From positions 32,001-96,000 of the IMG/VR virus record IMGVR_UViG_3300001598_000001: a stretch of 64,000 nucleotides of DNA; one strand, 5' to 3'. Made by a program: the position numbers and the translations under genes. Shown here piece after piece: positions 349 to 56,289 of the stretch; positions within the stretch are counted from its first letter, which is position 1; each line of letters opens with the position of its first letter. This DNA comes from a virus (taxonomy: Duplodnaviria; Caudoviricetes). The notes beneath the pieces were generated by a model. That model was not told the origin of the DNA, ran no database searches, and worked only from the letters and a program-made list of their open reading frames with translations.

Positions 349-2835
349 TTATCTATTAGCGCATAAAGCACCATATTGTCCTTTAATAGATGTCTCAACA
401 ACACTATTTTTATGAGCCTTAGCCCATCTTAATAAAAATTGTACAATTTCAGGTGTTGGATTACAATTTTGTAAACCATGAACTTGTCTTACAGTCCCGT
501 CATTTAAAATTTCCATAGTAAAATATGGAGTTTCAATATCATTTTTCTTACGAATAAATAATACATTAGTAGTACCATTTGCAATTGGTTCTACGAATCC
601 ACCTACACAATGATGTAATTCAGATCCTTCACGAGTTAAATTTGCAATTGATTTAGGAGGAATAATACAAAGATCTTCTTTTTCATCGATCCATTCCCAA
701 TCTTTAACTCTTTTAAGAGCTTTGTCAAAAGCAGCAGCTTTAGCAGCATCTTGATATCTTGTAATTATATCACTTATATAATCATGCAGATGTTGTAAGT
801 GCTTGTCATCATTTGGTCTAACAAGATAAACTTTAGGATCCCAAAGATCTGGTCTGTTGATTCTTGTTGCTAATAATTCTAAACGCTCTCTCATATTGAG
901 ATAATCATTATAAGTTGTAGGATCGGAGAATTTTACCATGAATTTAATTTTATCTTTTGGAGATAATTTATCCATGATTTCTTTGACCCCTCCACGAGAG
1001 TAATCAGACAAATTATGAGAACCATAATAGTTTCTTCGATTTACCATAGCCTCTCTATTATTTTTAATAAAATTTAATACTAATTGAAACGTATCTAAAT
1101 CTAAACAATTTAGATCTCCAATTATTTTACTTATATTATATAATGGTGGAATAACACTATCATCACTGAAACAATCTCCATCTGGATGATCAATCATTTG
1201 TTTATTAATTGATTCTTGACAAAAATTATTTACTAAACTTAATTGCTTATTAGATAGTAAAAATACTTCTTTCGCATTTTTACCCTTGGAATTAATTGCC
1301 ATTTGTCCATGGTAATCGCCATAATATTTCTTTGTATTGCTTAAGTCTCTTAAACAATCAGCAGAAGTTAAACCTCCTACTAACAATATAGCAGCTAATA
1401 ATCCAATATTGTTGGTTTTAATTAATTGTTCACACACAACATCTTTTTGGGAACATAATAAACTAAATCCAATACTAGACCAGGTATTAGGAGTAATTGC
1501 ATCTTGAATTTTAATCCATTTATTAGAAGATGTACTAACCCAATTACTCGTATCATTATATCTGTAAATATGTTTAGTAATAAATAATACTTCTGGTTTT
1601 TGATCTAATAATAATTTAATATTAGTATTGTCCCAAACTTCATCAAATGATTTTAAATAAGTTATACTATGTGGAATAACATTATCATATTTTTGATGCC
1701 AATTATTATCATTATTGTTTTTAGTGGCAGTAGAAAATAATTTTGTAATAGTTCTTTCACTAGCGACACTACTAGTATAACAACCATGAGGATTTCCAGT
1801 AATTATTTTCTTTTTACCTGTGATGGTATTTAAAAGTAATAAATTCTTTTGATGACTTTGTCCTGATATTTGAGTAATCAAGATATATTCATTTTGTCTA
1901 TCAAAATATAATTCTAATGTACGTTCTGGATATTGAATATTCAAAGAATTAATTAAATTGTCTAAATTAGTTTTTGCAGTTTGACTGCTTTGTGTTACAC
2001 TTGTTCCGTTAGGACAGTATAATAAAGTTAATAGGTCTGTCCAATTGGTAATAACTTCTTTATCAGTTTTTGCAACATAATTGGCACTAATAGTTGGTTT
2101 GTCATATGAACTTAGTTGAAAAAATTCTTTTAACTTTTCTTGAGTTTCTGGAGCAAAATCAAGATCTTTATCATTTTTATCGTATGATTTAACACCAAAA
2201 ACTTTGTTATTGGCCAAGTCTGGAATGTATCCATCATAAACCCCAACATATTTATTACCTTGTTTGCTTTTTACACGATAATATTCTGGAATTTCTTCGA
2301 CATTTTTAACTATAAGAAAAACTTTGTGTCCATTCTGATCTAACTTTTTTAACATTTCAGCATTACGCTGAGAAGTAAGAGATTCATTGTCTCTTAATCT
2401 ATTATAACGACTACCATTTGGAGAAATTACATATCTTACAATATCTCCATTAATATTAGTCATAGTTTTTAAAAAGACAGCAGTACCATCTTTAAAAATG
2501 ACTAAACCACCGCCATAATATCCTGGTCCAGAATAAAGATGAGGATTTTGTTTATAATCTCCGACTCTATTTAGAACCATATAACGCTGTATTTCAATAC
2601 AATTTTCATAAAATATAAAACTACAGCTTGTTAACGTCCAAAATCCTTGTGTTTGATGTATAACAATTGGATTCTTCAAATTTTTACAAACTCTTTGATT
2701 GAAATAGTCTGTACGAGACAAACGGCCAAAAGGTTCTTCGGATTTTTTGCTGCGATCAAACCTGTCTCCTTTACTGGTATAATAAATACCAGATTCTGTT
2801 ACTAAAACAGTGTCTCTTTTTGTAATATCTATCAT
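349..2835 (-). CDS. PcfJ-like domain protein
   Basis: 828 aa. C-terminal LCIIPPKS..LTREGSELHHCVGG..LFIRK..PYFTMEI..VRQVHG matches the PcfJ-like domain pattern. All 11 Trp are TGG. Confidence 0.75.
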   Translation of the reverse strand: MIDITKRDTVLVTESGIYYTSKGDRFDRSKKSEEPFGRLSRTDYFNQRVCKNLKNPIVIHQTQGFWTLTSCSFIFYENCIEIQRYMVLNRVGDYKQNPHLYSGPGYYGGGLVIFKDGTAVFLKTMTNINGDIVRYVISPNGSRYNRLRDNESLTSQRNAEMLKKLDQNGHKVFLIVKNVEEIPEYYRVKSKQGNKYVGVYDGYIPDLANNKVFGVKSYDKNDKDLDFAPETQEKLKEFFQLSSYDKPTISANYVAKTDKEVITNWTDLLTLLYCPNGTSVTQSSQTAKTNLDNLINSLNIQYPERTLELYFDRQNEYILITQISGQSHQKNLLLLNTITGKKKIITGNPHGCYTSSVASERTITKLFSTATKNNNDNNWHQKYDNVIPHSITYLKSFDEVWDNTNIKLLLDQKPEVLFITKHIYRYNDTSNWVSTSSNKWIKIQDAITPNTWSSIGFSLLCSQKDVVCEQLIKTNNIGLLAAILLVGGLTSADCLRDLSNTKKYYGDYHGQMAINSKGKNAKEVFLLSNKQLSLVNNFCQESINKQMIDHPDGDCFSDDSVIPPLYNISKIIGDLNCLDLDTFQLVLNFIKNNREAMVNRRNYYGSHNLSDYSRGGVKEIMDKLSPKDKIKFMVKFSDPTTYNDYLNMRERLELLATRINRPDLWDPKVYLVRPNDDKHLQHLHDYISDIITRYQDAAKAAAFDKALKRVKDWEWIDEKEDLCIIPPKSIANLTREGSELHHCVGGFVEPIANGTTNVLFIRKKNDIETPYFTMEILNDGTVRQVHGLQNCNPTPEIVQFLLRWAKAHKNSVVETSIKGQYGALCANR

Positions 2836-2855
2836 ATTGTTGTTTCCTCCTTATA

Positions 2856-3284
2856 TTATTGGACTCTAGTAAGTCCTCCTCCAAACGCTTGAACGCAAAT
2901 GGTTCCATATTCTGAAAAGTCAGGAACACTTTTATTCCAAACATAAGCATATGGAAAGAATTTTGTTCCATTGGCTTCTAATTTATCATCTACTTCATCT
3001 TCTCTATATTTAGAAACGATGAGTAATGAATAACATTCGCCAAATTCAAATATTTCGTGAGTAGCGGCATATACCATGTCTCCTGTTCTTTCTTCATAAG
3101 CACAAATATAATCTTCTAATTCTTTTTCGCCGTTATCAGCGGTTGCATAATAACCACCGAATCTTTCAAAAAAGGTAATTACACCCTTTTCTTCAAAAGC
3201 TTTAATATATGGTTTATAAATATCCATTTGTTTTAATCTAATTAAAGCTAATGTTTTTTGTTCTTCTTTTGTTAATAATTCCAT
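2856..3284 (-). CDS. Phage hypothetical protein
   Basis: ORF with AGGAGG RBS before MELLTKEEQ. Confidence 0.75.
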   Translation of the reverse strand: MELLTKEEQKTLALIRLKQMDIYKPYIKAFEEKGVITFFERFGGYYATADNGEKELEDYICAYEERTGDMVYAATHEIFEFGECYSLLIVSKYREDEVDDKLEANGTKFFPYAYVWNKSVPDFSEYGTICVQAFGGGLTRVQ

Positions 3285-3435
3285 AATTTTAATTTCCTCC
3301 TTTATGAAATGTAACAAACAACAAATGAACCTAATTGGTTCTTCAATCGTCTGTATAAATAAAACGTTCTTTTTATTCTGGGAACGTTATAGACCAGAGA
3401 ATATTTTTATAGAATATTCAAACTATTGATGAAAA

Positions 3436-4020
3436 TTACCAATCTTCTTCTTCATCATCGTCATAGTCGTCGTAATCATCGTCGTAACAATCATCACAAT
3501 CACAACTACAGGCAGCTCTTTCTTCAAGAATAGCAGTTTTTGCTTTTTCAACTAATAAAGCATCAATTGCTTCTTCTGGTAAAGTAATACCAGTTAATTC
3601 TTCTGGAAGGCAAGCAAGCTCTTCATTGTTAAGAGTGTAAATTTTATTAGTTTCATAACTAATCATTAATTTAACTCCTTCAACTTCAACTTCTTTGGAT
3701 GGTTTAATACCAGCTTCAGTAGTTTTACAAGCAGTTTGAATATAAGACATTGTTTTATAAACATTTCCACCTGTGGCTTTTAAAGCTTCTCTTAAAAGCT
3801 TTTCACAGGCTTTCTTATCACTTTCGGTAACATAACCAAAAGCTAAAGCTTTACATGGTTCACCATCAATAACTGGTGTACAATATCCATATCCATTGCT
3901 TTGAAATTGGATGGTAAATTCAGTTTGATTGAGTTCACCTTCATGTGTGTTGATTTCAACACTAGTTGCAGTTGCAACTGCTTCTTCTGCGTCAACTAAG
4001 ACTTTCTTTTCATTTTCCAT
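3436..4020 (-). CDS. Hypothetical protein with Cys/Asp-rich acidic tail
   Basis: 194 aa, GGAGG RBS, ends CSCDCDDCYDDDYDDYDDDEEEDW. Confidence 0.75.
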   Translation of the reverse strand: MENEKKVLVDAEEAVATATSVEINTHEGELNQTEFTIQFQSNGYGYCTPVIDGEPCKALAFGYVTESDKKACEKLLREALKATGGNVYKTMSYIQTACKTTEAGIKPSKEVEVEGVKLMISYETNKIYTLNNEELACLPEELTGITLPEEAIDALLVEKAKTAILEERAACSCDCDDCYDDDYDDYDDDEEEDW

Positions 4021-11118: not shown

Positions 11119-14019
11119 TTATTCGCCTCCTTCATCATCATCTTCTTCAATATTTAAATCATCATCTTCCACGTTATTATAGTTTGATCAATTAAACATA
11201 GCTTCAATTAATCGATCTACCGCAATACTTGTGGTATCAGATACATCTTTTAAATAATATTTATTTCCTAAATATTCATATGTACCTTCTTCATTATCTT
11301 TAACAGGTGCAAAAGTTGGACCAGGAGGAATTAATTCAACAATCTTTTCTCCTATAATTTCCCAAGCAAATCCTCAGTTAAAATTAGACAATGTTTGAGA
11401 TAGTTTGTGACAATAGAATAAGAACTCCTCATATGATAAACCAGTATCTAATAATTGGATTTGTAATTCTTTGATAATAGCATCATAGATATTAGAACGT
11501 AATTCAATATAGTCATCATCAAAAGTGTCCTTATTATATAATGCAGTTAAACGTTTAATTTGTTTTTTAGATGTGTAGGATGAATACATCTTTTTAACCT
11601 TTGCTAATTTAATTTCGTCAAAACTATTTTCATAATCTTTTTCATATGTTGGTAGTTTTGATATTTTATATTTCTTATTTCCTGTTTGAACATCTTTTGC
11701 AAATTTAATATCAAAATCAATTGATTCAAATTCACGACAGAGTCTATTCATGGTACAATCAGAAGTGATTAAAGGAGAATATTTTTGATAACGACGAATT
11801 AACATTTTTTCTTCTTCTGTTTGATTTTCTTTCTTTAATAACTTTTTAAATTTAATTCCAAACATATCACGACTGATTTGATTATAAGAATCTTCAAAAC
11901 GTTTAAATTTTTGATTTAGTTCTGGATATAAATATCTAAAGAAATAAGGTTTTTTAGCAACAACAATAGCATTGTTTTTAATCTTTTTTAAACGGGTTTC
12001 AGCATCGTCTTCAGGATCTATTTTTTCAAATTTCTTTCATTCTGAAGGTAAGAATGGTTTATCTGCTCCTTTAATACGGTCAATTTCCTGTCCAACAATT
12101 TCACGTAATAATTTAATACGAGTCATGATGATATTATATTGATCTTCATGTCCTGGTTTATTAAAGATTGCAGCCATTGCATAAAGTATAGTTGCAGTAT
12201 TAGAAAATCCACCAACTCCAGTACCAAAACCTTTCATAACTGTTTTTGTAATATTGTTAACCGTCATTTTTGCTGGAACGGCTAATCCTTTTTCATAAGT
12301 GATAATACTGTGATCTTTATGAGAACCTTTAATAAAATATTCATTATCAGTAGATAATACAATATCTCCATCAAAGTCAGCGTCTTCGGCTCTAAATACA
12401 GCAGTGTCGTATGTAGAAAAAACAATACCACTGTTTAAATAACGCAACCAATAATCTGCTTCGTCATTATGTAACAAAACTTTACTTGGATTATGTTCAT
12501 GGACATCAATCATTGGGCTACGACATAAATCAACGATATCAGCATTTCTTTTATTTCAGAACGATGACCAAATAGTGTCTTTTGGAACAATACCAACTGG
12601 ATCTAATCCCAAAGCAGCTTGACACTGAGCTACAGGATCGCTAACCATAAATTGATAATTTCCTTTGATTCATATTTTTCCTAATTTAGCATGATTAATA
12701 GATTCGGCAATATTTTTATAAATTTTATATTGAACATAACTATCTTGTAAAAAATCAACATTTTTCACAACAGCTTTCATTGCTGATGTTTGAGCAATAC
12801 TGTACATTGAATCATAATCTACGTCATTGTCTTTTACACCAAATGAATATAATAATGTTGGTAATAATTCACCAGAACAAATTTGTTGAATTCAATTTAC
12901 TGTAGGTTGAATTAATTGCTTAATATCTTCTTTACTCAACTCAAGAGATTGAATATATTGATAATTAGCTAAAACATATTCTTCATCTTGACGTTTGTTG
13001 TATCTAGCTACACCTCAATGAATTTCACCTTGTTTAGCATATTCACAATATTCTTGCCAACTATTATAATATTTATAAGTTTTAAATTGTGATTCGGAAA
13101 GTAAAACATCAATATCATTGATATTGTATTCTACACCCCAACGATCTCTAATGGTGAAGATATTATGTTTATGAGCATATTCTTTAAAATCAAATGTTGC
13201 TAAATTACCTTTAATAAAACAAGATCTTGCTACAAATGAACAAGGGGTATAAGATAAATTCATATCTTGTGCCCAAAGCTCAGCAAAATAAGGATCAATT
13301 AATCCTTGTCCATCAGCACAGTTTAATTCTAAGTCCATAATTCTTGGATCAATATATGATTTACCATTTTCATCTTTACAAATAAAATCCACTTTTTCGT
13401 TTGGTAAAGTACGATAAAAATCTTTTATTACACAAACTCTTGGTGTTCTTACCCAAAGAATAGAGGAAAAAGCTAATGCAAAATAAGCACTATACTTAGC
13501 TAAAACAAATTGAGAAGTTTTTTCATCTAATCCACAATTTAATCTTTTAACTAAAAAATCATACAATTCTTCATTTACAAAAGTAGCTGTGTTACGTCTA
13601 ATTTGTCCAGACCCAGAACATAAATAAACATAATGAATTCCATTAACATTAAATCCATTGACACGAAATTTATGAAAGTCAGATTTTTTACCGTCTAAAT
13701 AAACGTTAATAATATCTTTAACAAATAATTTTTCAGTAATCGCTCTATCTAAAATATGTGCTTCTTTATACTTACCTTGCTTTTTATAAATATGCATGGT
13801 ACTACGTAATTGACTAATTTTATTAAAAAGTTTATTATGTTCTTGATAATTTCCATAGTAATATCTGATTTGTTGAAAAATTAGATTATCACCAATTGAA
13901 ACAATATTTTCTTCTTTTTCTCCACGTGATATGGTATAATTTTCAATTTGACAATTGTTAGCAACTATAAACGAAGCAGGTAATTTAAAGACTTGATATA
14001 AGTTTTGACAAACTGCCAT
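11119..14019 (-). CDS. YonO-like single-subunit DNA-dependent RNA polymerase (cellular RdRP fold), TGA=Trp
   Basis: Three track ORFs fuse into 966 aa through ~7 TGA. Motifs CADGQG, FIKG, RSP, DADFDGD, VGGFSN, GQEIDRIK. Context matches SPbeta yonO. Confidence 0.9.
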
Positions 14020-27961: not shown

Positions 27962-29497
27962 ATGATAACCGTTGATAAAGAAGACATAGTAGAATATTAT
28001 ATTAATCAAAACCATTCAGTCCAACAAACAGCTGAACATTTTAATATTAATTGTAAAACTTTTTTTGGATGGCTACACAGATTAAATATTCACAAAGACA
28101 AAACATTAAGTCAACAAAATGCACAAAAAGCATTAAAAGATAAGCACATTATGGAAAATAATCATCCAACTAAAGATGAATTATATCAATATTATATTGT
28201 TCAAAATCATTCTGAAACAGAATGTTGTCAATATTTTTCAGTATCACGTTCGTCTATTCAACGTAGGATTAAAAAGTATCAATTAAATAAAGATACACAA
28301 CAAATTCAAAAATGTACCCAACATACTGTTTTAAATAAATATGGTTATAATTTTGTTTTACAAGATCCACAAATACAAAAAATAAATAAAGCACGACTAC
28401 AAGAAAAATACGGTGTACAAAATATTGCACAGCAATATATTCAACATTTAGATATATGGAATGATAAAGATAAATTTGTAAAATTTTTAAAACAGCAAAA
28501 TGTAAAAATGACAGCAGTAAGTTTGGGTAGATATTTTAATGCTCATATAAGTACTTGTTTGAGAAAAATCCATAGTTTGGGGTTAGAAAATCTTATTGAT
28601 ATTAAGCCTGCTACATCGCAATATGAACAAGAAATTATTGATTTATTACATAATGAGTTTAATATTGATAATATTATTCAAAATGATAGAACAGTATTAA
28701 ATGGGAAAGAAATTGATATTTATTTACCAGATTATAATTTTGGAATTGAATTTAATGGTGAATATTGGCATTCAGAAATTGGTCACCCTCATTATGCTGA
28801 AAGAAATGGTAGATCCACTTATCACCAACAAAAATCTTTAGAGGCAGAACAAAAGAATGTTTTTTTATTTCATATTTTTGAACATGAATGGTGTGAACCA
28901 TTTACAACTGTAAATCCTAAATTTACAAATAGTCGTAAAAAAATTATTAGTCGTTTAAGATCAATATTACATTATAATGAAAAGACTATAGGTGCTCGTC
29001 AATGTGTAATAAAAGAATTAAGTTATGATGAAAAAACACAATTTCTAGATTGTAATCATTTTCAAGGTAATGATATATCTAGTAATTATTATTTAGGATT
29101 ATTTTATCAAAATGAGTTGGTTAGTTGTATGACTTTTGGTAAATCTAAATACAAAAAATATACCTGGGAACTAAGTAGATTTTGTAATAAAGAAAATTAT
29201 CAAATTCTTGGTGGTGCCTCAAAGTTACTTAAATATTTTGTAGATAATAAAATGTGTAAAAATGATATTTTAGTTTCTTACAGTGATATTACTAAAACTA
29301 GTGGAAATTTATATAAAACATTGGGTTTTACTAATACTCAAATTAATGATCCTAATTATTGGTGGGTTAATTTTAATACTGGTGATGTAAGAACTAGATA
29401 TCAAGAACAAGCTGCTGGTGAAGTAGCGCGTATGCATAATAAAGGATATTATAGAATCTGTGATTGTGGTACAAAGACATGGATTTTGAAAAAATAA
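27962..29497 (+). CDS. Free-standing homing endonuclease (Hef/Vsr-like PD-(D/E)XK) with N-terminal HTH repeats
   Basis: EIDIYLPDYNFGIEFNGEYWHS, FHIFEHEW, WELSRFC, GGASKL, DCG motifs; two N-terminal YYI..NHS HTH repeats; no TGA. Confidence 0.8.
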   Translation: MITVDKEDIVEYYINQNHSVQQTAEHFNINCKTFFGWLHRLNIHKDKTLSQQNAQKALKDKHIMENNHPTKDELYQYYIVQNHSETECCQYFSVSRSSIQRRIKKYQLNKDTQQIQKCTQHTVLNKYGYNFVLQDPQIQKINKARLQEKYGVQNIAQQYIQHLDIWNDKDKFVKFLKQQNVKMTAVSLGRYFNAHISTCLRKIHSLGLENLIDIKPATSQYEQEIIDLLHNEFNIDNIIQNDRTVLNGKEIDIYLPDYNFGIEFNGEYWHSEIGHPHYAERNGRSTYHQQKSLEAEQKNVFLFHIFEHEWCEPFTTVNPKFTNSRKKIISRLRSILHYNEKTIGARQCVIKELSYDEKTQFLDCNHFQGNDISSNYYLGLFYQNELVSCMTFGKSKYKKYTWELSRFCNKENYQILGGASKLLKYFVDNKMCKNDILVSYSDITKTSGNLYKTLGFTNTQINDPNYWWVNFNTGDVRTRYQEQAAGEVARMHNKGYYRICDCGTKTWILKK

Positions 29498-38183: not shown

Positions 38184-39191
38184 ATGGGACGTAGTACAGT
38201 ATATAATGATAATTTGACTCAAAATTGGTCAAATGTATCACAACAAAATAAAAGATTAGTTAAAGACTTTTTACAATATTGTAAATCCAATGATAAAAGT
38301 CCACAAACTCTTCATCAATATGAAGAGTGACTTAAAGTTTTCTTTTGTTGAAATTTTCAAGAAAACGAAGATAAATTTTTTATTGATTTAAAAAAGAGAG
38401 ATTTTGTTTATTATTTTGGATGATGTAGAGAGTTAGGAATGAGTGCAAATCGTATTGCCGCACTTAAGTCTGTTCTTAGTAGTTTATCATCTGAAATTGA
38501 ATTATTATATGAAGATTTATATCCTAATTTTCATAATCAACTTAGAGGATTAGAACCTGTACATATTACTACTGTTCGTGAAAAAACAGTTTTATCAACA
38601 GAAGAAATTAATAACATTCTACAAACATTGGTAGAAAAGAAAGAATATCAATTAGCTTGTTATTTAGCATTGTTGTGTGCTTCTGGTGCTCGAAAAGCAG
38701 AAATGCTACAAATGCGACCTGATTTTTTCACTGAAAGCCACGAAGTTTTCGATGGATATATGTATTGCACTCCACCTATTAGATCTAAAGGAAGGGGAAA
38801 ACAAGGAAAAATTATTAAAAAATATGTGATTAAAGAATTTTTTAAACCTTTTTTTGATTTATGAATGGAAGAACGTGAAAAAGAAAATATTACATTGTCG
38901 AATTTATTTGTAACTAAAAAAGATGGTCAATACGTGGAAGCTACCACATCAACAGCTAATAGTTTTGCTGCAAAAATTTCGAAAATGTTTAATATAGATT
39001 ATTATAACCACTCTGGTAGACATTATTTTTGTACATTATTAAAATCAATGAATTTACCAGATGATGTTATAGTACAAATTTTTAGTTGAAGTGACGGATC
39101 CATGGTTAAAATTTATGATGATACGCCAGTCGAAGAAAAATTAAATAAATTTTTTATGCAATTTAAAAAGGAAGAAATAAAAGGAGAATAG
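38184..39191 (+). CDS. Tyrosine recombinase (YomM-like), TGA=Trp
   Basis: 335 aa. SGARKAE, RSKG, HSGRH, IFS[W=TGA]SDGSMVKIY give an R-K-H-R-W-Y catalytic set. Confidence 0.85.
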
Positions 39192-40547: not shown

Positions 40548-40642
40548 AGGGGCTTAGTGTAGTGGTAGCACACGAGACTTCAAATCTCGGGTAACAGCGT
40601 CCAAAGCTGCGGGTGTGGGTTCGATTCCTACAGCCCCTGCCA
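40548..40642 (+). tRNA. Opal-decoding tRNA-Trp(UCA) with a 25-nt variable region
   Basis: AGGGGCT/AGCCCCT-G-CCA acceptor (Trp-like), GTGT/GCAC D stem, CGAGA-CTTCAAA-TCTCG anticodon arm, GTGGG-TTCGATT-CCTAC T arm. Confidence 0.9.
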
Positions 40643-44553: not shown

Positions 44554-47500
44554 ATGAAAGAAAAAATAATTGAATATACAAACCTTAGTGATATTGATTT
44601 TAGTAAAAATAGCACGTTATACAAAGATATTAGTAGTATGGATAAGAAAGTCCGTGCTTTTGACGCTAGATCCAATGAAATTAATGATAAAATAAGTAAA
44701 GAAATATTCAGAGACGCTTTAGTAAGTGGTGGTAACAATAGTATTTTAGATTCTTTACATGGTATAGAAAACCTATGTCGTAGTAACGGAATTCAAACTA
44801 AAGTAACAGTAACAAACGATGGAATTAGTTTAGTGGCTTATGATGAAAATAATCAAGTTGTACCAGTTATCTCTTATATGGCTGGTTCAGATGGATTAGT
44901 AATTCGTGATAATTTAGTAGTATTAGATTCTTTGTATTATAGTCAAAATAATGCCACTGGTAAATCTCAATTAATTAATGGAACAGTTGCTTATTTAAAT
45001 GAGTTTAATAAAATTTTAAAAACTAATTGAAGTAAGTTAAAATCACAAAAACAAGATTTTAGTTCTATTTTACAGTTTGCTCGTAATGAAGCTAATAAAC
45101 AAATTCCTATAACTAATCAAGGAACTTATAAATTTGTTGGTAATTCTGGAAAAGAGATTTTATCAAACTTAAAAAAACAAAAAAATGTTTTTAAAAACAA
45201 GAGTAAGAGTTTCGATGTTGATCCTAGTGCGTTTTGAGAAAATATTATTTATGACACTGTTAGAAAATCGGTAGCTCCTGGGGTTACTTCACAAGATCAA
45301 TCTTGAGCACAAAAAGAACGTGAAATTCGTCCAATAATAGAAAAACTTGCTAAAGAAGCTTCTAAACTACCTTCTGTAAAACAAGCAACTCGATTATTTA
45401 GTGAAGATTATGATATTAGAAAATTAATTACTAAAGACAGTAATCTAAAAGCTAAGATTATGGAAGCGGTTAGATTTTTTTCTGAAATTACTTGAAATCA
45501 ATCTAATATGTCTGAAGCTGATGCCCATAAAGGTAAAGTGGCAATATTTGGCGATAGTAGAACTGGTATTTCTGGTCAAGAATCAATTACTAAAAAAGAT
45601 CAAGGTAGTTCATATTTAAAACGAACTAAAGCTGGTCAACACAATACTTATGCACATGTAGCTGGTGGTATTTTAACTTCTAAAACAGGTTTTAAAGGTA
45701 ATTCTGCAGATTATGATTTATTTACTATTGCTCCTGTTGAATCTGAAGCAATTTCTGAAGGTATGAATAATATGTTTAAAGCAGCCGTAGAACACGAAAA
45801 GGTTGCTCGTGAAAACATTAAAAAATACGGAGAAAATATCAAACACAAGGCAGAATTAATTAAAATATTAAAAAATAAACTTGATACTATTAAAAAAGAT
45901 GACTATAGTGATTTAGAACATGAAATGATTTCTCAAATTATGGAAATTTATGAAAATTATCGCACTGTTCATGATACAGGTAATAATCAAGTGCAATTTG
46001 ATACTCCTGAAGAATTTAGAGATTATTTAGTTAATGAAGCTAATAAACGTTTTGCTCAAAAAGTAAAACAACGCAAAACTTATAATAAAGAAAGAAAGAA
46101 ATCTTTAACTAGTGAAATTGCTGATATTAAAGTTGCAAACACAGACGCTAAATATAAACAAGCAGCAGCTAAAGCTTATCATAAAATTAATGAAGAATCT
46201 GTAGAAGATTTTGCTTTAGACAAATTGCGCAAACAATATCATATGGATTTTAATCCTAATAAGCCTCATTCTGATGTGTTGGATGATCAAATCATTATAG
46301 TTAAAGAAGCATTAGCTGAAATACAAACACAATTAATGCAACAACAAGTTTTTACAGAAAAAGATATTAAAAAAGCTATGAAAGCTGGAAATTATCAAAT
46401 TTCTGAAGAAGCTGTGTTGGCTAAAATAAACGAACAACGAAAACAGCAAGGTTTAGATCCTGTTTCTATGAAAGACCTAAAAGTTGGACTTAATAAAGAA
46501 AAAGGTGTATTTACAGCACAATATACTGAAGATTTTATTATCAAAGAAGGAACTAAATTATTAAATTATTTAGGTAGAGAACGTTGATCTTCTTCAAGTT
46601 TACCAGCAGATGTAATGAAATCTGTCTTAAAAGCACAAGCACGATTAATTGCTTCTGTTAAATCTGGTACTAATGATGTTAATGACACTAAATATCAAAA
46701 AGAATTTGCAAAAGCCAATTCTATGTATTTTGATTCCAATGATAATCTTAAAGTTGCAGGCGTTAGTGGAATTAGTTCATCTATTAAAGGTGAAAAATTT
46801 TATGGTTGAAGCCAAGGTGTTATGTCCTATGCTTTAGGTGAATTGTTTAATCAAAGTTATAAAAAGAATATTTCTAATGGTCAAGAAAAAGCAGTAGCTA
46901 AGTCTGAAGCTATTAATAAAGTTCGTGAAAAATGAAATGAATCTGTAGATAAACTAGTCGCACAAGGACAATTAACTACAGAACAAGGTGAAAAATTTAA
47001 ACAATTAGTTACAGGTGTTAATGAAAAAACTGGAAAAGTAAATTTTAATACTGATTCAAAAATTACAGATTTTGTTAATAAAAATTTAGTACATTACGTC
47101 AAGTTAATTAATACTGTTTACAAAGATAATACAGGCCGTAAACTTGGTACTTATAAAAATAATAAAAATGAAGGAGAAGTTTTTGAACTTGATCCTTATG
47201 CTTTATATGATATAGGTATTAATCCGTCTATAGTTGCCGAGGGAGATTGGGATCCACATAAGAGAGTTTCAATGGCTCATAATGAAAGACAAATTAAAGA
47301 AAGAGAAAATGAACGTTTAGCAGCTATGGGTAAAGACGTCACTGTTGAAAGAGCTATGCTTGATGTTCAATATGAACAAGCTATTGAAAAAAATACTAAA
47401 TATCAAAATAAATTAAAAGCTGTTAGAGACGCAGTTACTAATAATTTTAATGCTGATAGAATTGATGTTGAAGACAAAGATAAAGATATCACAGCTATTG

Positions 47501-50500
47501 TAAATTTAGCTGATTTAAATAATGCTAAAAATGTTGAAAGAGATGTTATTGACCCTGCTACATTTAATTCTAAAGATTTTACTCAAACTAAAGAGGGTAT
47601 TATTTGGACAGCACAACAAAATAAATATCAAGAATTATTAAATGAGTTTATTGATCCAAATAAAATTAAAGAAATTGAAGAATTGCGTAAAGCTAAAAAA
47701 TATAAAAAAGCAAAAGAATTAGAGGTACTAGAACAACAAAGAGTACAAAAAGCCGTATTAGATAAATATAAAGTTGAAAGTGCCAAAGATATTAAAATTG
47801 CTGGAAAAACTAATATTCAAGGATATTTAAATAAGAGTGTATCTGGATTAGATTATGATGCTATGACAGGAGAGCTTTTAGATCTTGCTGGATACGATAT
47901 AGAACAAGATGAAAATGGCAATTATCGTATTAACAACACAGCAGACTATGAATATAATCGTAGTATTCTGAGATCTTATGAAAACGCTCTTAAAGAAGAT
48001 ATTTTAGAAGATAGACAAGCAAAATTTGGAACTGGAATTTATAAAGCTGGTCTTGAACGTGAGCGAGCTTACGTAGAGAAAAAAGGTTCGGAATTTGAAA
48101 AATTTGCTAAAAAAGAAAGAACACATAGTAAATTTTTAAAAACTAAAGATTTAAATAATGCTGAAAAAGATACATTATATACTAGTAAGAGTGATATTAA
48201 TGAAATGATTTCTCAACGAGAGAATGAAACTGATGAGGAATATAATAAACTTATTAAAGGTATATACAAAGATACTTTAGGTGTTAATAATGCTCCAAGA
48301 AGAAAACAAAATGAAACTCTTCAAGATTATAATACTCGTATTAAAGATAGTGTATTAAAAGCTATTATAGAAGACGATAAAGATCTTATCATGGATGTCA
48401 CTAGAGATCCTAATAATACAGCTATGGCTGGTATGAAAGTTAAAATTAAACATTTAACTGGTATAGGCGAAGGTGTAGTTGGAGGAGATCCAGCTTTAAT
48501 TAAATTTCTTAAAGGTGACTATGATGGTGATAGATTAGGTTTAGCTTTAGATGCTGATGGTAATATTATTGGTGCTGTTCGTATGACTCAAAAACAAGTT
48601 GACGAACATATGCTAAAAGAAAGAATATTAGCGGAAGAAGATGCTGAAGTATTACGTTTTATTACCAATCAAAAAGGTGGAAGTACTTTACCGTCTGCCA
48701 GCACAGCTATTAAAATAGACAAAAATGGTAAAAAATATATTGAAAATACTACGTTAGATGTAGCTGATTTAACAGGACTTGAACGTAATGCTTCAACACA
48801 ATTATTATCATTTGAAGCAAAACAAAATAAGGATGACTATGTTGGACTATATTCTAATTTTAGAACTAGTGCAACTACTGGATTAGAAGAAAAATTTGGA
48901 AAAGGTTTAGGTAAAACAGTAAATACTGCTAAAACTGGATTAGCTATTGAAGCCTTATCTTTATTATTGGCTCGTCCAGAACAAGCTGCAATTTCTTCTA
49001 AACACTTGAAAAATTTAGCAGCCACTGATCCTGAATTATTTAAACAGTGATTTGAATGAGAAGAAAATGAAAATGGTGAACTTATTCATAAAAAAGATGA
49101 AAATGGCAATGTTATTTTCAAACAAGCTTATTTAGATCGTTATGAAAAATTAGCTAAAGATTTAAAGAATTCTGATAATTGAAACAGTGAAACTCAAAGA
49201 GAAGCATTATTACAAGAAATGGTTAATCTTGGAATGATTGAAGGTAGTGGTAAATTTACTGACGATCAATTCTTTGGTGAATTTTGAAAACTTGCTAATA
49301 CTGAATTAGGACGTAAAGGTTTAACTGGTATTAACAAACGTTATAATAAATTATACGGAAAAGATGGTAAATTAAAAGCTGGTGCTGATTTAAGTATCAT
49401 GGATCTTGATTTTATCAGAGATATGTTAAATTGGTTATCAGTTCAAAGTGCAGAACTTGCTCCTAATGAAACATTGGGACATATAGTAACTACTGGTAGA
49501 CAATCTGCTCTTGATAAACAACGTGTTTATGATCAAAAAAATTTAATTGAAAAACCAACTGAAAAACAAATCAAAGAACACAAAGAATCCTTGGGTAAAG
49601 ATGTCGAAGTAGAAATTCTTAAATCTATTAATTTATTAATTGATACTATTAGACAGTCTAGTGGAGTCATTGCTCAAGCAGCAGGTATTAGTGGTGGTAA
49701 TGGAAATCGTTTTGCTTATAATATTTCTAATATTACAGATAATAATAAGAGAAATGTTTTAGCTGCTGCATCCAGAGCTGGTGGCTATACTAATAAAATT
49801 ACACCTACTGAGATTGCTCGAGTGAATGCTCGTAGTGGGGATAAAATTTATAGTAATTGAGATGAAATAATTAAAATTTTAGAAGATCCTACTGTAGATG
49901 TTAAAGAGAAACAACGTATTATTGGTCAAATGTCCGATGCTGACAAAAATTGGGCATTAGCCACTCGTCGTGGTAAATTAGTTCACCAATTTAGTGAAGA
50001 TCAACGTTTAATTGAAAAATATAATTTAACTAACGTAGATCCAAATAAATGAAATGAAACATTAATTAATCAATTTAAAAACACCAATGATATCAATGAA
50101 AGAAAAGAAATTTCTCAATTTTTAGGTATTTTAAACAAAAAATCTGACGAATTAAATCATGAAAATGGTGGTTTTGTAAAACAATATAAAGAATTTAGTG
50201 AATTAAGTAAAATTTTAGATATCAAAGATACAGATTGATTATCTAAAATTATAGCATCAGCTCAAATTTTAAATAAAATGTCTTCCAATGAAACAGTTAT
50301 TGGTAAAGAAGTTGGTATGCATAATTATATTAATGTTAATGGTGAAGATACTGTTGAACATGGATATATTGACCAAATTACCAGAGCGGCTGTTAAGAAG
50401 GCCCAAACAGATATTAATGGTGAAAAATATGAAGTAGATGCTAATCGTTATACAATGGAAGATTTAAAAACTACTTCTGGAACAGGGGTTGATCTTTCAT

Positions 50501-53500
50501 TAAAAGACGCAGAACAAGTTCTTCGTTATATTAATTATGGTAGTCAGGCTAATAAACAGTTTAAAGAGGAATTAGGTGGACTTGCAAAAGTTCCTACCAC
50601 AGCCAAAGAGTTAAAAGATTTTTTAGCCAATGAAAAAGATTTAAATAAATATGCTGCAATTCGTCAATTTGTTGATGATATTGAAGAAAATGGTGGGGTA
50701 CTTACTGACGATCAAGTTCAAATGTTAGCAGATAAAAATGCTATTTTTGAAGGACGTATTAAAAAAGTAGATACTCAAACAAATGAAGCTGCATCGTATC
50801 GTATTGGTGCAAGTCAAGCTAAAGAACTTATTCAAAGATCACAAAACGGAGAAGATATTAGTGGATTTTTAGGTAATTTTGTTGAAGAAAGACAATTTTA
50901 TCAAGCTGGTAATTCTGTTTCTGAACTTAAAGAAGAAATTACTTTATTAAAACAAAAATATGAATTACAGTTAAAAATTAATAAAGCTTTATTAGAAGGA
51001 AAAGATAATGAAGCTGCTGTTCTACAAGAACAAGAAAAAGAAGTTGATCTAAAACTTAAAGAAGCTCAGAAATCAACTAATAAAATTGCTGACACCACAG
51101 AAAGAAAAAAATATGTTCGCGATACTCGTAAGGAGATTGAAGAACAATTACAAAAAGAAAATGATCAAGCTTTAAAGTTGTTACAAGCTCAAAAGAATGA
51201 TAAACAAAAAGCTGGTCCTAATAAAAATATATTAGCTCGTTTGAGCACGGGATTTGATGAGGGAATTACTCAACGTTTGAATCGTGCATTTAGTGGTTAT
51301 GCTATTTTTGCTAAACTTACTCAAGGGATCCAAACCGTTAAAAAGAATGTTATTGATTTAGATAAAGTTTTGACTAATCTTCGTATTGTCACTCAACAAA
51401 ATGAAGAAAGTACTCGAAACTTGATTAAGGGGTATTCAGAACTTGCAGGAGAATTAGGTGTGTCAACAACAGCTGTTGCTACAGCTGGACAAGAATGGCT
51501 AAGACAAGGCTATGATATAGCAGAAACCAACAAATTAATTGAAGCTTCAACTAAATTAAGTATTTTAGGTATGATGTCTTCTGCTGATGCTGTTAAATCA
51601 TTAACCAGTGCAATGAAAGGATTTAAAATGGAATCCTCAGAAGCAATAGATATAGTAGATAAATTAACCAAATTAGATGTTAATGCTGCTACTACTGCTG
51701 GTGAAATTGCTAGTGCATTATCAGAATTTGCAAACGCTGCAAGTTTAGGTGGCTTAAATATTGATCAAGCTTCAGCAATGGCAACTACTATCATGGATGT
51801 TACTCAAAATAGTGGTTCTCAAGCTGGTAATGCTCTGAAAATGATGTTATCAAGATTTGGTAATGTTAAATCTGGTGCCTATTCAACTCTTAATATTTCT
51901 GGCGATGCAGATACGGAAAGTGCTAGTCTAAACGATGTAGAAAAGGTTTTAAAGAATATTGGTGTATCATTAAGATCATCAAATTTAGAATTCCGTTCAT
52001 TTAGCGAAGTTTTAGATGAAATTAGTGAAAAATGGGTTAATTTAGATAATGTTAGTAAGAATGCAATTGCAACTGCTTTTGCTGGAACAAGACAACGTGA
52101 ATCTTTCCTTGTCTTGATGGAAAACTATGATAAATATCAACAATTACTAAAAGTATCTGAAAGTGCCGCTGGAACTTCTGAAGAAAAAATTAAATCTTAT
52201 CAAGAATCTATTGCTGCTTTACAAGAAGAAATAAAAGCCGCATGGGAAAATTTAGCTAATAATAAATCTATTTCTGACTTCTTAAAACTTATACTTAGTA
52301 CTACAACCCAACTTATTAAATGATTACCGTGAATAGTTAATATATTAAAACCATTATTAGCTACTAAAACAATTAGTATCGCTTCCAACTTTTTTGGTAA
52401 TGGGTTAAAAAATGGATTTTCTGGTTTATTTAAAAATGTTACTGCTACACAAAAGAATACAACAGCAATTGAAAAATTAACTACAACTTTAGAAAATACT
52501 TCGAACACTTCTGGAAACGGCGTATATAGTCGTAATAATATTGCAGTTGGTGCTGCGGGTATTACATCTACAGGTGCATTAACTTATGGTAATAAATCTG
52601 TCGGTCTTGGTGATGATGGTAAGTATTATTATTTAAAGAACGATGGTTCTTTATCTAAAAGATCAGTTAGTGCTGCGGGACAAAAAGAAATTCAACAAAC
52701 CGCAGAAAATAATAAAAAGCTTAAAAAAGCTGGTAGTTGAAGAAATAAAACGGGTGGTGAAAAAGTTGCTGCTGGTGCAGCTGCTGGATTATTAGCTGGG
52801 TTAACAGCTGATACCGATACCAAAGATATATATGGTACAGGAGACACAACCGTTAATTCTACATTACAAACTATAGATAAAGTTGCTACTGGTGCGGTAA
52901 CTGGTATAGCTACAGCAATTGGCGGACCTATTGTTGGGGGTATTGCTAATATATTAATGGAAGTTGCTACAAAATATGCAATGCCATGATTAGAAAAAAT
53001 TTTCTTCAAACGCGATTTTGAATTAAAACTTTTAAATAAAAGTATTAATGAAGCAAAAGAAAATATTGAAAAAATTAATAATATTCAAAACTCTTTAAAT
53101 ACTTTAGTAGAATTATCAAATAAAAACATTTTAATTGGTGAAGATTATACCAAAGCTGTTGATGAATTCAATAAAATATCTGCAGCACTGGTTGATGACC
53201 CTAAAACACTTAGTGTTTGAAATGAAATTTTACATAATACAGATGATTTATTAGATGGTGTAGATAATGAAACGCTTTCTTTGTCTACTTTACGAGAAGC
53301 TTATTTAACTGGTAGTGCTCAAGAGAGAGCTGAAATAGCTACTGCTTTACGTGCATCATCAGAATTAGTTGAAGCTAGAGAATTCCAACGAACTTATTCG
53401 GCAAAAATGTATGAAGTTAATGAAACTATTAATAGTGCTCGTCAATATGATGCTGAATTTTTAGAGAAAAACGGAGTTTTAGATCAATATAAACAATATG

Positions 53501-56289
53501 CTAAAAATAAATATGCACAAATGAGTGATGCCGAAATTATTAAACAATTTGGCAGTGTTGCAAGCGAATTAAAGTATGGAATAAATTGACTTGGTGGTTG
53601 GACAAATTTTAACACTAATAAAATGACTTCTTTAGACGTTGTTGCTCAGGAAGTTAGAAAATATTTAGAAGATAATGTTGATAAAACTTTCCAAGACAAT
53701 TTTAACTCTGATGTTCATTTACGCGAAGAATTATCTACTTTATTAAATGAAAGTGTTCTTGTTGATTATTGAAACCAAACTATTGAAAGTTTAACTAAAC
53801 AATTGGAACAAGGTGAAAATGTTAGTGAAGAACTACGCAAAGCTAATAACGAACTAAACAAAGTTCAAAATGCTATTAATTTAAAACAAAACTATACAGA
53901 TGAAATTAATTATAAATATGCTCAAGCAGCATTATCTGCTTCTGGTTTAGAAAATTTAACTCAAGCACAATTAAATAATATGGGTTATAAAGATAAACTT
54001 AATAAAATTGCAGAAAATATGGAGTCTTATGGTTATTCTGTTTATAATTCTGATGGTGTGTTATCAGCTCAAGCTCAAACATATATTGAAAATGCTATTA
54101 GAAGTAATAGTAAAATATATGGATCTGTTAGTGGTCAAGTCTATTCATTAGCTGAAGTTTTAAACAAAGATAATGAAAATTTATTTAGAAATTATCAAGA
54201 AATTCTATGGCAGTGATCAGAAGCTTTGGGTGTAAGTGTTGATGAATTAGATGATTTAAAAGATACTTTAGGAGATATTACCTTAGCTCAAGTTTTAAAA
54301 ACTCCAGACGAAACACGTCAAAATATTTCTGAACTAACTTCTATGTTCACATCTATTTCTTCTTCTACTGGTATTACCGCTGAAAATATAGAGAACATTA
54401 TTACAAAGTTCCCACAATTATTACCTTATGCAAGTAGTGTTGGTGATTTAATTGGGGGGTTAACCAAAGGCATAGAACAGTATAGTAAATTATATGCATA
54501 TCAGATCACTAATCAAATTTTAAATAGTGAATCTGTACTTTCAGATATTCAAAAAAATATGAGAGAGGGTACTGTAGATGTTGATATAAGTGAAGATGAT
54601 CAAAAACAATTATATGAAACATTGTTATCTAACTATTCATTTGGTAATGGAAGTGTTTTAAATGATATGCTTGGTTTAATATGGGGTAATGCTGAAGAAA
54701 ACGGTATAAGTGAGGAAAATCAAGAAAAATTACGAACTATTGTAGAATCTTATTTACCAGATATAGAAAATACGCTTGAGCGAGATTCTATTAAGCAACA
54801 AATAGATTATCAACAAAAATTATTTGATCAACAAATTAATAATTTACAAGAACAAAAAGAAATGTTAGATAATATAAATCATCAACGTGAGTATGAAAAT
54901 AAATTAATCGAAGCTAAACTCAAATTAGAAAATTCTCAAAAAGAAAAGAAAAGAGTTTGAAGATCTGGAGTTGGTTGGACTTATGAAGCTGATCAAAACA
55001 GTATTTTAGAAGCCCAAAAACAATTAGAAGATGTTGAAAATGAAAAGAACGTCTCTAAAATTGATCAAGAAATTCAATTATTGAATTCACAAAAAGAGTT
55101 ATTAGCTAATATTGCTAGTAGTGAAGAATTTGAAAATATGCGAGATTCGTGAAAAGGTTGGTCTGAACAAATGAAGCTTTATAATGAAGATCAAGAAACC
55201 ATAATCACTAATTTATCAACTTTATATAGTTCAATTAGCAAAATTTCTACTAAGGATATAGCTGAAGACATAGCTGATGCTGGAGTAAATAATGCTGATG
55301 AAAAATTAAATACATTAGATACTTTATATAATACAGCTCAATCTTATATAACTGGCGAAAATAAAAATGCTCCAACTACAGTAACTGCTTCCCAAGAATA
55401 TGCAGATTGAGAAAATAATCGAAATAATGCTCTAACAGCTTATCAAACAAAAGCCAATGAGTATAAGAACGTTATTACTCAAGATTGACAAACCAAACAC
55501 TCAGATCATGCAGCCATTATGAAAGCTTCTCAGCTTCATAATCAACAAGATACTATCATGATTGATGGAAAAGCCTATACTGTTGGCAATCAACCATTAA
55601 GTGACACAGATCCTTACTATCAATGAGTACAAGATGACCTTCGCGCAGGCGAAAAAGGCCCTCAAGACAGTAATGGTAAGGGTAAAGGTAAGTATGTTAA
55701 AGTATTTGATCCAAAAACAAGTACAGAGACAAACGAAGATGGAATATTAAATTATTCTCGAAGTAAAAGTAAAACATATGGAGAGGTTAATGGTTCTGAT
55801 GATAAAAAAGATTATAGTAGTTTAGTGTTATCAGATGTGGCAGCAAGTTTGAGTGATGGTACTATTTTAAGTAGTGAAAGTGGAACCGTAGAATATGTTA
55901 TGGTTATGAACCATCAACTTAGACAATTAGATCCGAAGGCCAAAGGAACTTTAGATTTAAATAGTCATGGCGTTTTATTGAATGAATTAGGAACAGAAGC
56001 AATTGTAACACCTCAAGGTACAATTACAGCTCTTCCTTCTCACTCAGGTATTGTGCCAGCTGATATTACTCGTAATTTATGAGAATTAGGAGAAATTTCT
56101 CCTACACTTACACATTTGCTTGATCATTTGAATAATCAAATGGTTCCTGGAAAGAGTGTATTTGGTAATGATGAATCATTTAATATTAATACTATTAATA
56201 TGACAGTTAATGCTGATAATAGTTTTGATGCTCAAAAATTTATTGAGAGTGTTAGACAACGCGCAGCTTTAACAAAACATAATCGTTAA
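44554..56289 (+). CDS. Giant tape-measure protein with N-terminal RNA-polymerase-like and PD-(D/E)XK nuclease-like domains (TGA=Trp)
   Basis: All track fragments share one frame: 3911 aa with ~28 TGA. TP901-type TMP core at ~51340-52260 (EWLRQGY, GNALKMMLSRF). GDYDGD at 48514; DLKT at 50461. Confidence 0.85.

Follow-up and report, generated by a model that had tools for sequence, protein, structure and literature searches.

A predicted RecB-family nuclease domain between the polymerase-like module and the core of a giant phage tape-measure protein

In the Thermus phage P23-45, and also in P74-26, G20c and TSP4, the tape-measure protein (gp96 in P23-45) carries an N-terminal virion RNA polymerase while a second polymerase, gp64, is non-virion, and it has been proposed that gp96 transcribes the pre-early genes as the DNA passes through the tape-measure pore (PMC10770324). 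Here we analyse a related arrangement in a 64,000-nucleotide stretch of DNA (the window), which spans bases 32001-96000 of IMG/VR record IMGVR_UViG_3300001598_000001, a complete virus record of 131,489 bp that carries direct terminal repeats, from an uncultured phage known from one metagenome record only. A preliminary description of the window had proposed a RecB-type nuclease domain between an RNA polymerase module and the core of the tape-measure protein, and this is supported by the invariant catalytic columns of homologs and by their matches to PDDEXK_1 and exonuclease families. Our conclusion is that amino acids (aa) ~1800-2005 of the tape-measure protein very probably form a genuine RecB-family PD-(D/E)XK (PDDEXK_1-type) nuclease domain. 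With only slightly less confidence, we take the best explanation of the data as a whole to be an active, cysteine-free RecB-family domain that forms a cassette with the polymerase module; it is likely that the domain is catalytically active.

Under the standard code the tape-measure region splits into short open reading frames (ORFs), and with TGA read as tryptophan it becomes one ORF of 3,911 aa with 28 in-frame TGA codons. Upstream are the genes for terminase, portal and other virion proteins, and the opposite strand holds no competing long ORF at the nuclease region. Tape-measure PHROGs match aa ~2000-3600 of the protein, and the nuclease domain sits between the polymerase motif GDYDGD (aa 1321-1326) and the tape-measure core; the R-x-P...DxDGD two-barrel signature and the PF10145 core are, as read from sequence, in one predicted polypeptide. 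The main features, in window positions, are as follows.

44554-56289, + strand: tape-measure ORF P0001, read with TGA = Trp; polymerase-like module, nuclease domain and tape-measure core (PF10145, 96.6 bits; tape-measure PHROGs).
47077-49509, + strand: two-barrel RNA-polymerase-like module, with GDYDGD at 48514-48531.
49756-50658, + strand: aligned family region around the nuclease domain (alignment A3, see below).
49951-50568, + strand: predicted RecB-type PD-(D/E)XK nuclease domain, aa ~1800-2005, from the A3 alignment, leave-one-out hidden Markov model (HMM) and hhalign comparisons, and Pfam, PHROG and NCBIfam matches of homologs.
51439-52086, + strand: tape-measure core PF10145 (PhageMin_Tail), aa 2296-2511, Pfam match.

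The motif letters named in the preliminary description (ITPTEI, RGKLVH, the E of KE, HGYIDQI, EDLKT and EQVLRY) were all located at the positions given there, within the TGA=Trp ORF, and all but ITPTEI follow the order expected of the family:

49798-49815, + strand: ITPTEI, aa 1749-1754.
49969-49986, + strand: RGKLVH, the G-x-x-x-H helix motif, aa 1806-1811; family consensus G-T-x-A-H.
50299-50316, + strand: IGKEVG with E1919, the predicted acidic residue of the first core strand; the E is aligned in the four closest relatives.
50359-50379, + strand: HGYIDQI, motif II, aa 1936-1942; G1937 invariant and D1940 nearly invariant.
50455-50472, + strand: MEDLKT, motif III (D-x-K), aa 1968-1973; D1970 and K1972 invariant.
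50512-50529, + strand: EQVLRY, the Q-x-x-x-Y motif, aa 1987-1992; Q1988 invariant and Y1992 kept in most members.

The first of these, ITPTEI, is present but was rejected as a family motif, since it falls in an unaligned and unconserved part of the family alignment. Using patterns that were composed after the sequence had been seen, the core triple G-x-h-D...(D/E)-x-K-(T/S/N)...Q-x-x-x-(Y/F) with family-typical spacing was found in 114 of 5,000 shuffles of the protein (2.3%), and the same triple preceded by G-x-x-h-H and E in two of 5,000 (0.04%).

The evidence that carries the assignment comes from relatives. A search with the portal protein recovered nine related viral contigs at 65-70% identity, and the only GenBank phage record matching the portal did so at 24%. 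In three long portal relatives the tape-measure gene was located via PF10145, and each has an N-terminal extension of ~2,000 aa. By BLAST, these extensions showed no similarity to that of the window protein beyond the tape-measure core, yet all three contain D-x-D-G-D at aa 1169-1311, followed ~470-620 aa on by G-x-h-D, h-h-D-x-K-(T/S) and Q-x-x-x-Y. With an alignment covering the conserved beginning of the tape-measure core, 25 viral loci were retrieved. In most of them the ORF extends 2,050-2,660 aa ahead of the core, in many cases under the standard code, and the same motif series is present.

From these we assembled A3, an alignment of 14 nuclease regions (the window sequence and 13 relatives, the latter at 12-22% identity to it). 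Only four columns are invariant, namely G1937, D1970, K1972 and Q1988, with D1940 and G1956 nearly so, and the G-T-x-A-H motif of the relatives aligns with RGKLVH. These are the positions, catalytic and structural, by which RecB-family nucleases are recognised. Thus the catalytic residues, whose variability among homologs would have counted against the assignment, occupy invariant or near-invariant columns of the 14 sequences, and in this alignment the predicted catalytic set of E1919, D1940, D1970-x-K1972, Q1988/Y1992 and H1811 is shown to be conserved. The cassette as a whole diverges much faster (12-22% identity) than either the portal (65-70%) or the tape-measure core (35-48%).

Profile comparisons place these regions in the PDDEXK_1 family. 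Two relatives, L030 and L031, exceed the PF12705 (PDDEXK_1) cut-off of 22 bits, scoring 41.9 and 40.7, and a third, L027, reaches 15.4 bits. Members also match the phage 'exonuclease' PHROGs 69, 1218 and 3953 (three of them phrog_69, best E 8.4e-12), and two match the NCBIfam Cas4 and AddB models weakly, at E about 4e-4 (Cas4 TIGR00372, E 3.8e-4). An HMM built from seven sequences, none of them Pfam-positive, recovered L027, L030 and L031 at the syntenic place with E of 2e-7 to 5e-5, and distant public proteins found from another relative, L037, carry precomputed PF12705 annotations, in one case together with PF10145. Bringing in the window protein, an HMM of the 13 relatives with the window sequence excluded matches it at aa 1737-2027 with 16.9 bits, where the best of 999 shuffles reached 12.7, and hhalign of the window-free profile against the same region gives a probability of 78% (P 1.9e-5) and keeps E, G-x-x-D, D-x-K and Q-V-x-x-Y in register. 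Aligned by hhalign to the standalone PDDEXK_1 protein of the same phage (described below), A3 matches at motifs II, III and IV (P 0.001). Against the PDB, the A3 profile gave weak matches at motifs II-IV that include Cas4 (4ic1) and two AdnAB-type helicase-nucleases, but neither with this 14-sequence profile nor with a 4-sequence one did any nuclease reach significance; CylK, which occupied the top rows for the 14-sequence profile, was discarded as spurious, being a Gly/Asp-rich beta-propeller. The link of the window region to PF12705 is, at the level of sequence profiles, transitive: profiles tie it to its relatives, and the relatives L030 and L031 pass the cut-off.

Several observations weigh against this assignment. 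The nuclease region of the window protein has no match in Pfam, PHROG or NCBIfam (for PF12705, none at E up to 10), and a six-frame PF12705 search of the whole genome does not recover it. Neither an exhaustive phmmer search of 1.84 billion representatives nor a word-index search of 5.8 billion proteins (long proteins) found a homolog of the region. Its spacings are longer than in most relatives, with ~110 aa from G-x-x-x-H to E and 30 aa from motif II to motif III. An alignment-free fold model is all-helical with a mean pLDDT (predicted local distance difference test) of 49.5, and a model based on A3 is still poor, at 55.1; Foldseek found no match with the latter. VIA-align places human EXO5 (7lw7), a nuclease of the RecB/Cas4 type, fifth in its ranking; the Z of 5.1 over 114 aligned residues is at noise level by the tool's own note. 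On the direct searches and the alignment-free model alone, we would have considered the nuclease claim fairly unlikely.

Other searches with the same region were equally silent: it had no match among PDB sequences, among GenBank phages by tblastn, in pattern scans of IMG/VR viral contigs, or in a translated search of five related records, and a first protein-language-model search of the Atlas returned unnamed clusters only. Pattern scans with the relatives' nuclease regions returned the same or near-identical records only, and tblastn of the L030 and L037 regions against GenBank phages gave no match. In a further Atlas search the nearest named clusters were restriction-endonuclease-fold families, with a score of 0.83 that is too low to count alone. 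The A3-based model, low as its pLDDT of 55.1 is, opens with helices, which give way to four strands (residues 186-235 in the 301-aa stretch) and finally to a long helix; in it E1919 starts strand 1, D1940 lies between strands 2 and 3, D-x-K ends strand 4 and Q/Y are on the helix. As modelled, this puts the motifs where they would be expected and is compatible with a restriction-endonuclease-like alpha-beta-beta-beta-alpha-beta fold.

It could be argued from these results that the motifs arose by chance, or survive as a dead remnant, in a tape-measure spacer that is largely helical, and that they have no part in catalysis. Such an explanation would account for the missing direct library match and the low-confidence fold model of the window sequence, and the core triple does arise in 2.3% of shuffles. 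However, the invariant columns of very diverged homologs are exactly the catalytic ones, the leave-one-out profile matches fall at the right place, and homologs exceed the Pfam cut-off. We consider a chance or remnant origin extremely unlikely, and close to refuted.

Granted a genuine PD-(D/E)XK domain, its place within the family can be narrowed. The preliminary description had called it RecB/Cas4-like, and of this the RecB-like half stands, on the profiles and the conserved catalytic columns, while the Cas4-like half does not. An iron-sulphur (Fe-S) cluster is a defining feature of Cas4, AddB and Exo5, and Cas4 has four conserved cysteines. The sole cysteine of the 3,911-aa protein is residue 75, so the nuclease domain itself has none; we therefore regard the domain as RecB-like rather than Cas4-like, because without cysteines it can hold no Fe-S cluster, and Cas4 membership was rejected. 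With PDDEXK_1 and Cas4 models, the window sequence itself gives no match, but its relatives do, L030 and L031 exceeding the PF12705 cut-off and two members matching the Cas4 model weakly. Insertion of a mobile homing endonuclease was also rejected as an origin of the domain, given its occurrence at the same place in all the diverged relatives and its exonuclease family.

The module preceding the nuclease is polymerase-like. R-x-P and D-x-D-G-D are invariant in ten relatives, and all nine matches of its profile in the PDB are RNA polymerase beta'/largest subunits at the Mg-binding loop, with AR9 the best (E 0.005), followed by phiKZ, vaccinia and ASFV. A second polymerase is predicted elsewhere in the window, as a candidate non-virion enzyme:

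11119-14019, - strand: separate QDE-1/YonO-type RNA polymerase, 966 aa; PF05183 at 32.8 bits (cut-off 23.8), with 7 in-frame TGA codons.

Polymerase motif and nuclease co-occur in every motif-bearing locus examined (16 in the A3 and motif survey, together with L033, L046/L049 and L048). At the 13 loci with D-x-D-G-D the nuclease lies 472-698 aa downstream of the motif, and in L027 and L029, which have variant D-x-D-x-D motifs, it is still present. Neither domain is found within 10 kb upstream at L032, L036, L041 and L043, four loci whose relationship is through the tape-measure core. Because the two are present together or absent together, polymerase module and nuclease behave as one cassette, and on the sequences compared this cassette is an N-terminal extension trait of giant tape-measure proteins in a clade of uncultured phages of ~100-170 kb. 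More than 100 public clusters of one subfamily, found from L037, are annotated just as 'tape measure protein', and the polymerase-nuclease cassette is common in public metagenomes.

Such strict co-occurrence, with a fairly constant spacing of 472-698 aa from DxDxD onward, raises the possibility that the nuclease serves the polymerase, acting on RNA or RNA-DNA hybrids in transcript 3'-end processing or termination, or in R-loop removal. PD-(D/E)XK endonucleases are built into the polymerases of influenza and bunyaviruses, and offer an analogue for such a role; the weak Atlas list includes Flu_PA. An unusual termination motif has also been reported for the tape-measure-fused polymerase of P23-45 (PMC10770324). 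Yet the G-x-x-x-H and Q-x-x-x-Y signature and all of the homologs' library matches are those of DNA exonuclease families, and gp96 of P23-45 works without such a domain, so we think a role on RNA very improbable.

Our preferred explanation of how the domain might act is built on DNA. It would be carried in the virion as part of the tape measure and, by analogy with what has been proposed for gp96, would exit the tail just ahead of the DNA. From siphovirus tails and the P23-45 model, the N-terminal part would leave the tail last, beside the leading DNA end, and the nuclease domain could then refold at the cytoplasmic mouth of the tape-measure conduit. That the domain is delivered at ejection is, on this analogy, a view we hold with moderate confidence. 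Once there, and with Mg2+, it would process single strands or DNA ends, most probably the leading end of the incoming genome, whether for terminal-repeat resection or for preparation of a template for the adjoining polymerase. End resection or single-strand processing might in this way be tied to first transcription or to annealing of the terminal repeats.

RecB/Cas4/AddB-type domains that lack a helicase are mainly end-dependent or single-strand-specific enzymes. We favour the phage's own leading genome end because a tethered enzyme that depends on ends would find no other free end at time zero, the host chromosome having none. Genome-end processing as the role of the nuclease is nonetheless a tentative assignment, which we rate as possible but somewhat doubtful. 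A more specific version, in which polymerase and nuclease make up a single injection-coupled machine, so that the tethered exonuclease resects the leading end of the entering genome and the exposed strand becomes the template for first transcripts by the machine's QDE-1-like polymerase, seems to us improbable; if it were true, pre-early expression would need neither host factors nor a duplex promoter.

Alternatively, the active nuclease could have a host-side target (chromosome, plasmids, prophage or defence nucleic acid), and be an injected weapon or counter-defence, perhaps cleaved free of the tape measure. Such an enzyme would need no gene expression to be present at time zero, divergence over the N-terminal 2,100 aa is much faster than in the portal and the tape-measure core, as is typical of host-interface proteins, and the separate PDDEXK_1 protein (79.5 bits) could serve recombination. 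Two considerations count the other way: the need of helicase-less domains of this type for ends or single-stranded DNA, and the small reach of a domain tethered to a membrane-spanning tape-measure protein. We regard a host target as unlikely. Co-delivery, and the roles suggested in the preliminary description (end processing, circularisation and attack on host DNA), are matters that we infer.

The standalone PDDEXK_1 gene, of 329 aa, lies outside the window at genome 115554-116336 (L002:1480-2469) and scores 79.5 bits to Pfam. Its motif III, VEDLKT, closely resembles the MEDLKT of the tape-measure domain. A second, weak PF12705 site is found at genome 110616-110861.

The integrity of the tape-measure ORF depends on the reassignment of TGA to tryptophan, which we accept because of three observations. 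The first is a tRNA:

40548-40642, + strand: tRNA with UCA anticodon, called tRNA-SeC by ARAGORN; supports TGA as a sense codon.

The second is that standard-code relatives have Trp or another aromatic residue opposite the TGA codons (for example, at aa 3843, W in 8/8; at aa 3469, W in 5/8), and the third is that the full-length 3,911-aa protein is also present in a public protein collection. The label tRNA-SeC points to a long variable arm, and this tRNA is the likely TGA decoder.

Other features of the tape-measure gene and its surroundings are recorded here in their own right. Relatives whose portals are 65-70% identical to that of this phage include the three long ones, yet the genetic codes of the tape-measure genes differ, with TGA=W in one (G002, locus L019) and TAG=Q in two (G003, L020, and G004, L021); many more distant relatives (loci L025-L049) use the standard code in this gene. 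In several relatives (L019, L020, L021:13405-14677) two ORFs make up the tape-measure gene, the split falling inside the PF10145 core: the Pfam match is interrupted at positions ~62/61, and the gap measures 0.14-2.1 kb. The gap in G004 contains a 367-aa ORF with no Pfam match, and an Rfam intron was looked for there and none was found. Unlike these, the window's gene is continuous across PF10145. Within the block of virion genes there are also a homing/HNH-endonuclease-like ORF (27962-29497; phrog_3339, E 7e-80) and an integrase-like ORF (38184-39191; phrog_1, E 1e-22).

If the domain is active, it would encounter DNA just as that DNA enters the cell, and it would bear on the start of transcription, on the processing of terminally redundant genomes, and on competition with host DNA or defences. 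There is also a point of method, in that a catalytic domain missed by every direct search was recoverable via synteny with relatives.

Comparing the protein with gp96 of P23-45, both are giant tape-measure proteins whose N-terminal side contains a two-barrel polymerase part with DxDGD, and both occur in genomes with a second, separate phage polymerase, which here is the PF05183 protein. Both are also nearly cysteine-free, with none in the 5,002 residues of gp96 (L051:13288-28296) and one in 3,911 here. They differ in that polymerase activity and virion location have been demonstrated for gp96 and are inferred for the window protein, and in that gp96 has an annotated metallopeptidase domain, where Pfam found none in the window protein. 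The nuclease was not found in gp96 by the family HMM or the motif pattern, and a nuclease is never mentioned in the main text of the P23-45 paper (PMC10770324). More widely, no paper describing a nuclease within a tape-measure protein emerged from our literature searches. Cell-wall hydrolases, by comparison, are a known cargo of tape-measure proteins.

With the PDDEXK_1/RecB-AddB-Cas4-Exo5 group and PHROGs 69, 1218 and 3953, the domain shares the ordered set G-x-x-x-H, E, G-x-h-D, h-h-D-x-K-T and Q-x-x-x-Y. It differs from Cas4, AddB and Exo5 in having no cysteines and hence no Fe-S cluster, and from the group at large in being too diverged for a direct model match, with longer inserts between its motifs, and in lying mid-way in a 3,911-aa protein, rather than being a free enzyme or a helicase partner. 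Relative to the literature searched, what is new is probably this: to the known fusion of tape measure and polymerase a conserved nuclease has been added, within the same, presumably ejected, polypeptide.

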